A stretch of 62,022 nucleotides of DNA, counting the filler, from Sphacelaria rigidula (lineage: Eukaryota): NCBI GenBank assembly GCA_964200075.2. It is 11 parts of 11 records of this genome, joined end to end, with 100 filler letters (N's around TTAATTAATTAA, not from the genome) between each part and the next. Parts side by side here need not be neighbours in the genome. Positions count along the whole stretch, not along the records: positions 45,182 to 50,728 come from CAXNAA020026446.1; 10 more parts are not named here. The stretch is one strand, 5' to 3'. Numbering within the stretch: position 1 is the stretch's first letter; the number at the start of each line of letters is the position of its first letter. Positions 50,426 through 50,728 of this stretch are shown piece after piece. The translations under genes and the position numbers were made by a program. Below the pieces are notes generated by a model, which had not been told where the DNA came from, did no database searches, and was given only the letters and a program-made list of their open reading frames with translations.

Positions 50426-50675
50426 GCGACACGTGCGACGGTAAAGTACAAGCTGCGCCATCACCGTGTGATCAGTGCGTCCCAATGCACCAGCAACGTG
50501 AGAGTATCCGAGGCAGCGCTGTTATCGCTTTCTTAACGCGATGCAGGGGTTCGAACGAGAAAAGGGGATGCATCAAGGGACGTATCATTGCAGAATTTCC
50601 AATTTTACTAGGTCGTGAACCCGTAGTAGAGCTATGCACTCACGCACCTCTCTTTCCCCCCCCCCTACTCACCGG

Positions 50676-50728
50676 TGCTCCGTCTCGAAAGGGATGCGTG
50701 GTCAATGGTCAAATGACTAAGGCAAGCA
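50676..50728 (+). mobile_element. Mini-element family A, cut by contig end
   Basis: TGCTCCGTCTCGAAAGGGATGCGTGGTCAATGGTCAAATGACTAAGGCAAGCA, with a C-run just upstream. Confidence 0.88.

Follow-up and report, generated by a model that had tools for sequence, protein, structure and literature searches.

The short repeat at 50675-50728 is one copy of a unit of 66-74 nt followed by a C run, and this unit forms the very 3' terminus of a poly-C-tailed non-LTR retrotransposon (LINE) of the APE type. The unit also occurs without the rest of the LINE, in very many copies that share a fixed 5' end; some are solitary and bear target-site duplications (TSDs), and others lie in head-to-tail arrays. The tail-only unit is a non-autonomous derivative of the (C)n-tailed LINE. 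That the unit is LINE 3' end and tail-only retroposon at once, with a role in cis, is considered likely.

Copies of the unit in the window

The window, here meaning the whole stretch of DNA analysed (62,022 nucleotides from Sphacelaria rigidula), consists of 11 pieces of about 5548 bases with linkers (N44-TTAATTAATTAA-N44) at 5549-5648 and then every approximately 5648 bases. Microsatellites, a Gypsy-like reverse transcriptase and a Copia-like pol suggest that the pieces are contigs of a fragmented eukaryotic assembly sorted by length. A profile search with nhmmer gave 12 copies of the unit across the window at E<0.001. When up to three mismatches were allowed, a 29-mer matched six times in the window where no match was expected, and none of 100 shuffled sequences reached six. 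The repeat is not due to chance.

The copy at 50675-50728 (54 nt) belongs to family A. With its intact 5' end (CGG followed by TGCTC) it spans 50673-50728 on the plus strand (nhmmer E 1.6e-17). The contig stops at 50728, the linker beginning at 50729, and this truncates the copy, which therefore lacks its 3' 17 nt (and with them the 3' arm of the closing stem) as well as its C tail. The closing stem of the initial annotation is, given the cut at 50728, a feature of other copies of the unit.

Complete family A units are found at 36222-36303 (-), with an 11-C tail and a flanking duplication of a C run plus AGGA, and at 58103-58186 (-), with a short C tail and a flanking repeat of a C run plus ACCTCAAC. 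Directly upstream of the latter in the RNA sense lies a 5'-truncated copy (58198-58232, -), which comprises the last ~27 nt and the C tail and has a C run plus 14 nt duplicated at its flanks. The family A unit at 42462-42545 (-) has its 5' side against an N10 scaffold gap and its tail against a family B copy, and the one at 42607-42707 (-) is mutated, with many transitions and a tail of 22+9 C. The remaining family A units are cut at the 5' end, at 5471-5548 (-, with a C tail) by a contig end and at 39535-39602 (+, with a 15-C tail) by a contig start.

Family B is represented at 42381-42466 (-; B42), head-to-tail behind the A copy at 42462-42545, with the loops replaced and stops in all three frames, and at 45182-45258 (+; B45), where the 5' end is cut by the contig start. 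A diverged B-like copy with a 19-C tail (44994-45081, -) is cut by a contig end and has lost hairpin 2. The sequence at 1170-1366 (+) is a 5'-truncated copy of the parent LINE of approximately 200 nt, containing the C-terminus of the ORF and the unit with a 5-nt insertion, and its TSD is CCC(C/G)CC+ACGG.

C runs of 7-22 lie directly 3' of the unit in the window copies as well as in five loci outside the window (L001-L005, see below). Five contig ends in the window fall within unit copies, because a high-copy repeat breaks short-read assembly. N10 scaffold gaps at 21114-21123, 42545-42554 and 59844-59853 adjoin C/G runs or a unit.

Other repeats were seen in the window. A further C-tailed repeat, whose 3' end differs (…GTATGTATCGTCTG ahead of the C run), is present at 59783-59941 (-) and 58245-58256 (-) and may represent another (C)n-tailed family. 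Two of its copies are separated by 145 nt, and an end resembling it, …GTCGTCT, occurs at 58257. Long tracts of (CAA)n/(TAA)n, (GTT/GTC)n and (CA)n lie at 50320-50430, 6714-6840, 39235-39440, 40775-40900 and 41900-41990. LINE tails may account for some of these tracts, because in the Ectocarpus table RTE LINEs end in (CAA)n and a CRE LINE ends in (CA)n (PMC12477816).

The unit as the coding 3' end of a LINE

Pattern scans of metagenome contigs gave three loci with the unit (L001-L003, used with 300-nt flanks), and scans of genome contigs gave two (L004 and L005), both filed under bacterial metagenome-assembled genomes (MAGs). A model and pattern search of these two MAGs added only L008 and L009. 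Viral contigs contained no copy of the unit by pattern, nor by protein or protein alignment (113 pattern matches, 0 confirmed).

The homology extends upstream of the unit in all five loci (L001-L005), as an ORF that reads through the unit and stops at TGA, 4-5 nt ahead of the C run. The complete contig of L005 (L014) carries one open frame of 1382 aa ending in the unit. Pfam domains in this frame are Exo_endo_phos (193-415), Exo_endo_phos_2 (302-437) and RVT_1 (763-1012), with a CCHC motif near the end of the frame; an APE-type endonuclease is placed N-terminal to the reverse transcriptase (RT) within a single ORF. In the LINE, the unit makes up the last ~21 codons and the TGA stop. The stems and G-U pairs of the initial annotation are real, but the coding nature of the unit in the LINE had been missed.

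The contigs from bacterial MAGs, namely L004 (Sulfitobacter MAG), L005/L014 (MAG of an uncultured bacterium), L008 and L009, carry eukaryotic LINE sequence and mini-units. Most simply, they are DNA of the host alga that was binned with bacteria. At 4735-4790 of L014, some 480-530 nt upstream of the LINE frame, the 3' unit recurs in part (~45 nt), inverted and diverged (local alignment score 41, where 500 shuffles reached at most 30). This partial copy could stem from an old insertion in antisense, or it could be a piece of the 5' region; in the latter case, pairing with the LINE 3' end would be possible.

An RT within the window, at 15513-16790 (+; RVT_1, E 1.3e-15), was rejected as the parent LINE; it is Gypsy-like, with a protease-like region upstream, reaches the contig end and is unrelated to the unit. 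Copia-like pol pieces at 24882-27554 (+), with Pol_BBD and rve each below the Pfam cut-off, are likewise unrelated.

Retroposition of the tail-only unit

The C-tailed strand is taken as the RNA sense strand because of the orientation of the ORF, the retention of the tail-proximal end in the truncated copy (only ~27 nt are kept at 58198-58232) and the fit of the TSDs. Among the five window copies in which both flanks can be read, four have TSDs that begin with a C run (36222-36303, 58103-58186, 58198-58232 and 1170-1366), while the fifth (42607-42707) is ambiguous. The C-run TSDs and the truncated copy are marks of target-primed reverse transcription into C runs.

The 5' end of the unit is fixed. 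It lies no more than 3 nt from the T of TGCTC in the window copies at 36222-36303, 58103-58186, 42462-42545, 42607-42707, 50673-50728 and 42381-42466, and the same end is found in a family B copy (L009) and in a copy of a third family, D (L008), outside the window. This bears on the account in which the copies are ordinary dead LINE ends, that is, a coding 3' end with its 5'-truncation products, in which the C tail or the primary sequence is enough for the RT, and a short sequence rich in G and U pairs at the three stems by chance alone. A 5' end that is not scattered, and that is identical in families A, B and D, speaks against that account, which is regarded as possible but rather doubtful.

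Contigs of four public runs were aligned to the last 1 kb of the LINE, giving 69,147 (X1), 78,809 (X3), 3,927 (X8) and 4,387 (X9) pieces; X8 and X9 are RNA runs by guess only, and the contigs are uninformative on transcription or strand. Among the alignments listed, at least 379 (X1), 343 (X3), 60 (X8) and 56 (X9) have a loose end just past position 173 of L005, which is the T of TGCTC. The unmatched part of the loose ends has a poly-G consensus, corresponding to a C run upstream in the RNA sense. Joints leading from 171-175 back to 95-101 (L005) were found in at least 134 contigs of X1 and at least 112 of X3. These joints are head-to-tail arrays with a C run between the units.

Arrays of this kind could also belong to a satellite-like tandem repeat that arose from the LINE end and was amplified at the DNA level by unequal crossing-over or replication slippage. 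Such amplification would agree with the number of contigs in which the 5' end is joined back to the tail end, and with the A-B and truncated-A neighbours in the window, but it does not fit the dispersed single copies with TSDs of their own (36222-36303 and 1170-1366) or the 5'-truncated copy at 58198-58232, which has its own TSD of 14 nt plus the C run. The C runs between units differ in length, adjoining units can be of different families (A beside B), and a retroposon that targets C runs yields arrays by itself. Amplification at the DNA level is judged very unlikely to be the explanation.

RNA fold

Both hairpins of the proposed structure are present in the copy at 50675-50728, hairpin 1 as CGUCUC-GAAA-GGGAUG and hairpin 2 as UGGUC-AAAU-GACUA. 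G-U or U-G is the commonest type in four of the 17 proposed pairs, with at least one in each helix, which bears out the earlier statement that all three stems use G-U pairs.

The structure was first chosen from these very sequences, a circumstance that favours dead LINE ends with chance complementarity. When the exact 66-nt unit was folded on the C-tailed strand, the minimum free energy structure consisted of the three proposed stems in L005 (z -2.01, 9 of 200 shuffles as good) and in L003 (z -2.40, 4 of 200). The L004 unit also had a low value (z -2.12), but in another fold, and the family B copy B42 had z +1.25. On the opposite strand, z was between +1.00 and +1.25 in all four sequences. In 71-nt windows, lacking the leading G and including five tail bases, z ranged from -0.98 to +0.65 on the C-tailed strand versus -0.34 to +1.51 on the opposite strand, and the energies were similar. 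The signal from single sequences is lost when the unit boundaries are shifted slightly, and values near zero with other boundaries are what dead LINE ends would give. The claim that the unit folds only on the C-tailed strand therefore holds for the exact unit in L005 and L003, but neither for the longer windows nor for B42.

The L004 unit (618-688) has a C to U substitution in the 5' arm and a G to A substitution after hairpin 1. Together they create a perfect 7-bp helix, GUGUUCC/GGGAUAC, that replaces hairpin 1 and the closing stem.

RNAalifold was run on hand-made, structure-guided alignments, which lean towards the proposed structure; a MAFFT alignment put the family B loops out of register. 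On the C-tailed strand the three stems were obtained with 11 rows at -9.94 kcal/mol, compared with -5.47±2.22 for column shuffles (10 of 300 as low), and with 12 rows at -10.38 kcal/mol, compared with -3.94±2.30 (5 of 300). The corresponding values for the opposite strand were -3.08 (231 of 300) and -2.52 (175 of 300). A fold signal confined to one strand at the level of the alignment argues against chance complementarity in dead LINE ends. A model-fitted alignment, with cut and stray rows included, retained hairpin 2 only (-2.27 kcal/mol). Mismatches that break proposed pairs occur in L004, B42, B45 and the copy at 44994-45081.

With 136 nt of LINE context, RNAalifold predicted that UGCUCC pairs with an upstream GGAGUA and not with the 3' GAGUAC, and this competing pairing is a point for the dead-end account. 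The conservation among the LINE copies (L005 105-240 and others) reaches approximately 35 nt upstream of the 5' end of the unit, where the predicted hairpin GGAGUA-loop-UGCUCC competes with the closing stem. The particular three-stem fold has about an even chance of being the right one.

Conservation of stems and coding sequence

The stems differ less between the families than the unpaired positions do. Family A and B42 differ at 3 of 34 stem positions versus 12 of 32 unpaired positions, and family A and B45 at 3 of 30 versus 13 of 32 (Fisher p about 0.008 for each contrast, the two tests not being independent). Among representatives of the three families (A, B and D), variation occurs in 5 of 34 stem columns versus 35 of 42 others, although the second figure is inflated by the crude alignment outside the stems. 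Loop 1 is GAAA, GGCUUUGUA/GGCAUUGUA or UACU across the three families. The loops of family B, GGCUUUGUA and UUAU/UUAA, are changed as originally described, one of them having gone from 4 to 9 nt.

One stem pair is U-G, C-G or U-A depending on lineage. Compensatory changes, with both sides of a pair altered, were found in none of the 17 pairs among 16 distinct rows, a result that fits dead LINE ends. The covariation score was 0.096 against a shuffle mean of 0.094±0.009 (289 of 500 shuffles as high), with little power either way since the 16 distinct sequences are mostly 94% alike. The stems are thus kept between the subfamilies in the sense of conservation, but not in that of compensatory change, and B42 and B45 contain mismatches; the structure-guided alignments gave the three stems on the C-tailed strand only, with covariation at the level of the shuffles.

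In family B there are stops or a frameshift in every frame, so the C-terminal peptide of the LINE cannot be encoded, and the stem nucleotides are still kept. Because there is a stop in every frame, this conservation does not come from coding; that stem bases are kept while loops are replaced, and even lengthened from 4 to 9 nt, weighs against dead LINE ends. The family D copy keeps the reading frame.

The last 66 nt of the five LINE copies differ less than the 274 nt upstream in all 10 pairs; in L001 versus L003, for example, the difference is 3.0% in the last 66 nt and 20.1% upstream. Third codon positions are invariant in the unit (0.000, n=20) versus 0.173 far upstream, which is the opposite of a coding signature. 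The third positions being least variable in the unit also goes against the dead-end account, but the low divergence of the tail may in part be assembly collapse of a high-copy repeat in short-read contigs and the result is weighed lightly. A VVNG motif is present within the last 30 residues of 18 of 120 relatives among the matches listed, some of them only ~40% identical overall. Coding may account for part of the conservation of the unit because this peptide motif is kept in distant relatives, as would be expected of an ordinary coding LINE end. The region of the unit is probably constrained at both the coding and the RNA level.

The last ~66 nt are likely to have a role in recognition by the RT. 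Such a signal, suggested in the initial annotation, fits a LINE 3' terminus that retroposes alone, but compensatory change and an excess of covariation were not found.

The 5' boundary and a possible processing signal

The fixed 5' end falls on the base that opens the predicted closing helix, and the other arm of this helix adjoins the tail. This coincidence, and a boundary common to three families, would suit a fold that directs cleavage or protection of the RNA, whether as a ribozyme, as an RNase P-like substrate or by stopping 5'-3' decay beneath a bound protein, and so leaves a short C-tailed RNA with a defined 5' end to be reverse-transcribed. However, the common boundary is equally well explained if A, B and D descend from a single truncated founder, and a comparison of the window with the covariance models of Rfam matched neither a ribozyme nor any other family at the gathering score. 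When L001, L003 and L005 were searched with a limit of E 10, a miRNA model alone matched (E 9.2), outside the unit and attributable to chance. The hammerhead core CUGAUGA is absent from the unit copies inspected, in agreement with the earlier reading of the sequence. The proposal of a processing element gained no support, Rfam having no family for the unit, and a processing or protection mechanism is very improbable.

Relation to known elements

The closest named protein relatives of the LINE ORF are Ectocarpus proteins with 39-74% identity, and the best full-length Ectocarpus match (P0006, Ectocarpus sp. protein) has 59% identity over 99% of the query. A (C)n-tailed LINE with tail-sharing non-autonomous partners is a kind of element already in print (PMC12477816). 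The table of that paper describes RTEX-1_Ec32 and RTEX-2_Ec32 of Ectocarpus as RTE-X LINEs with a single EN-RT ORF, '(C)n 3'' and 'C-rich' TSDs (PMC12477816, Genome Biol 2025). Of the non-autonomous partners, RTEX-N1_Ec32 is 607 bp, 'can be present in tandem' and has 60 bp of 3' end that is 83% like RTEX-1/2, and RTEX-N2_Ec32 is 188 bp; both have their 3' 60-100 bp in common with the RTE-X LINEs (PMC12477816).

As far as the published description goes, the Sphacelaria LINE is like the Ectocarpus RTE-X elements in having a single EN-RT ORF, a (C)n 3' tail and C-rich TSDs, and the Sphacelaria units are like RTEX-N1 and RTEX-N2 in that they share only the 3' end of the LINE, are abundant and can be tandem. 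Unlike RTEX-N1 (607 bp) and RTEX-N2 (188 bp), the Sphacelaria unit is tail-only, 66-74 nt, and has no foreign 5' head. The comparison with RTEX-1/2 is made by their description in the table and across organisms, the best full-length Ectocarpus match being 59% identical. The LINE appears to be related to the Ectocarpus RTE-X elements, as judged by protein likeness and shared traits, with the RTEX consensus known by description. Passages of the main text and supplementary table 1 of the Ectocarpus paper hold no mention of an RNA fold, of an ORF ending inside the shared tail or of a tail-only unit (PMC12477816). Searches of the literature on poly-C tails in non-LTR retrotransposons or in dinoflagellate LINEs found no paper, and on RTE-X nothing further beyond the Ectocarpus paper.

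The whole unit is LINE-derived, and no Rfam match to a Pol III 5' head (tRNA, 5S or 7SL) was found anywhere in the window. The unit lacks the Pol III head of a strict SINE; it does have a 3' end shared with a LINE, and TSDs.

In LINE/SINE pairs of the stringent type, such as UnaL2/UnaSINE1 of the eel, LINE and SINE have in common a 3' stem-loop that is recognised by the LINE RT, a requirement shown by experiment, and SINEs of the UnaSINE1 type carry a Pol III head. The Sphacelaria unit resembles this system as a non-autonomous element with a LINE 3' end, in which a small hairpin beside a simple-repeat tail is the presumed signal. It differs from UnaL2/UnaSINE1 in being headless, in its C-homopolymer tail and in that the module overlaps the ORF, and it is known from sequence alone.

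Repeat-specific LINEs of the R1 clade insert into simple repeats, and since target and tail are the same simple sequence, arrays result. The Sphacelaria insertions likewise recreate their own target and arrays arise, but the target is a C/G homopolymer, as deduced from the TSDs only, and the element is of a different clade, apparently related to RTE-X.

Proposed mechanism and implications

In the mechanism proposed, the endonuclease of the LINE would nick at C/G runs, and the exposed G run of the bottom strand would pair with the C tail of the RNA and prime its reverse transcription (target-primed reverse transcription). Priming by a G run on a C tail is suggested by analogy with L1, which has a T-rich primer and an A tail. 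The RT would select its template through the last ~66 nt, probably in the form of two hairpins on the C-tailed (RNA sense) strand that are closed by a helix of the first and last bases. A new C run, and with it a new target, would come with each insertion, and arrays in one orientation would therefore accumulate. The tail-only unit would be a non-autonomous lineage (families A, B and further D) living on the enzyme of the LINE.

It is also conceivable, though unlikely, that the 66-nt unit is a minimal, structure-delimited substrate of retrotransposition produced by the LINE out of its own RNA. The position at which the LINE transcript is cut, or at which bound ORF protein shields it from 5'-3' decay, would then be marked by the helix of the first and last bases, and the short C-tailed RNA left over would be copied by the RT into C runs. 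If all of this were true, RNA processing would let the LINE give rise to a parasite of its own, and one set of nucleotides would serve as codons, protein-binding site and processing signal.

The discovery is a modest one, the type of element and its tail-sharing partners having been catalogued, as described there, for Ectocarpus in 2025 (PMC12477816). The unit explains the assembly breaks at the repeat, the long C/G runs scattered across the genome and the eukaryotic LINE contigs within bacterial MAGs. If the 66-nt unit suffices in cis, it would set the lowest template requirement known so far for a (C)n-tailed, RTE-X-like element, and it would provide a concrete construct for testing how the enzyme chooses its RNA and its C-run targets.
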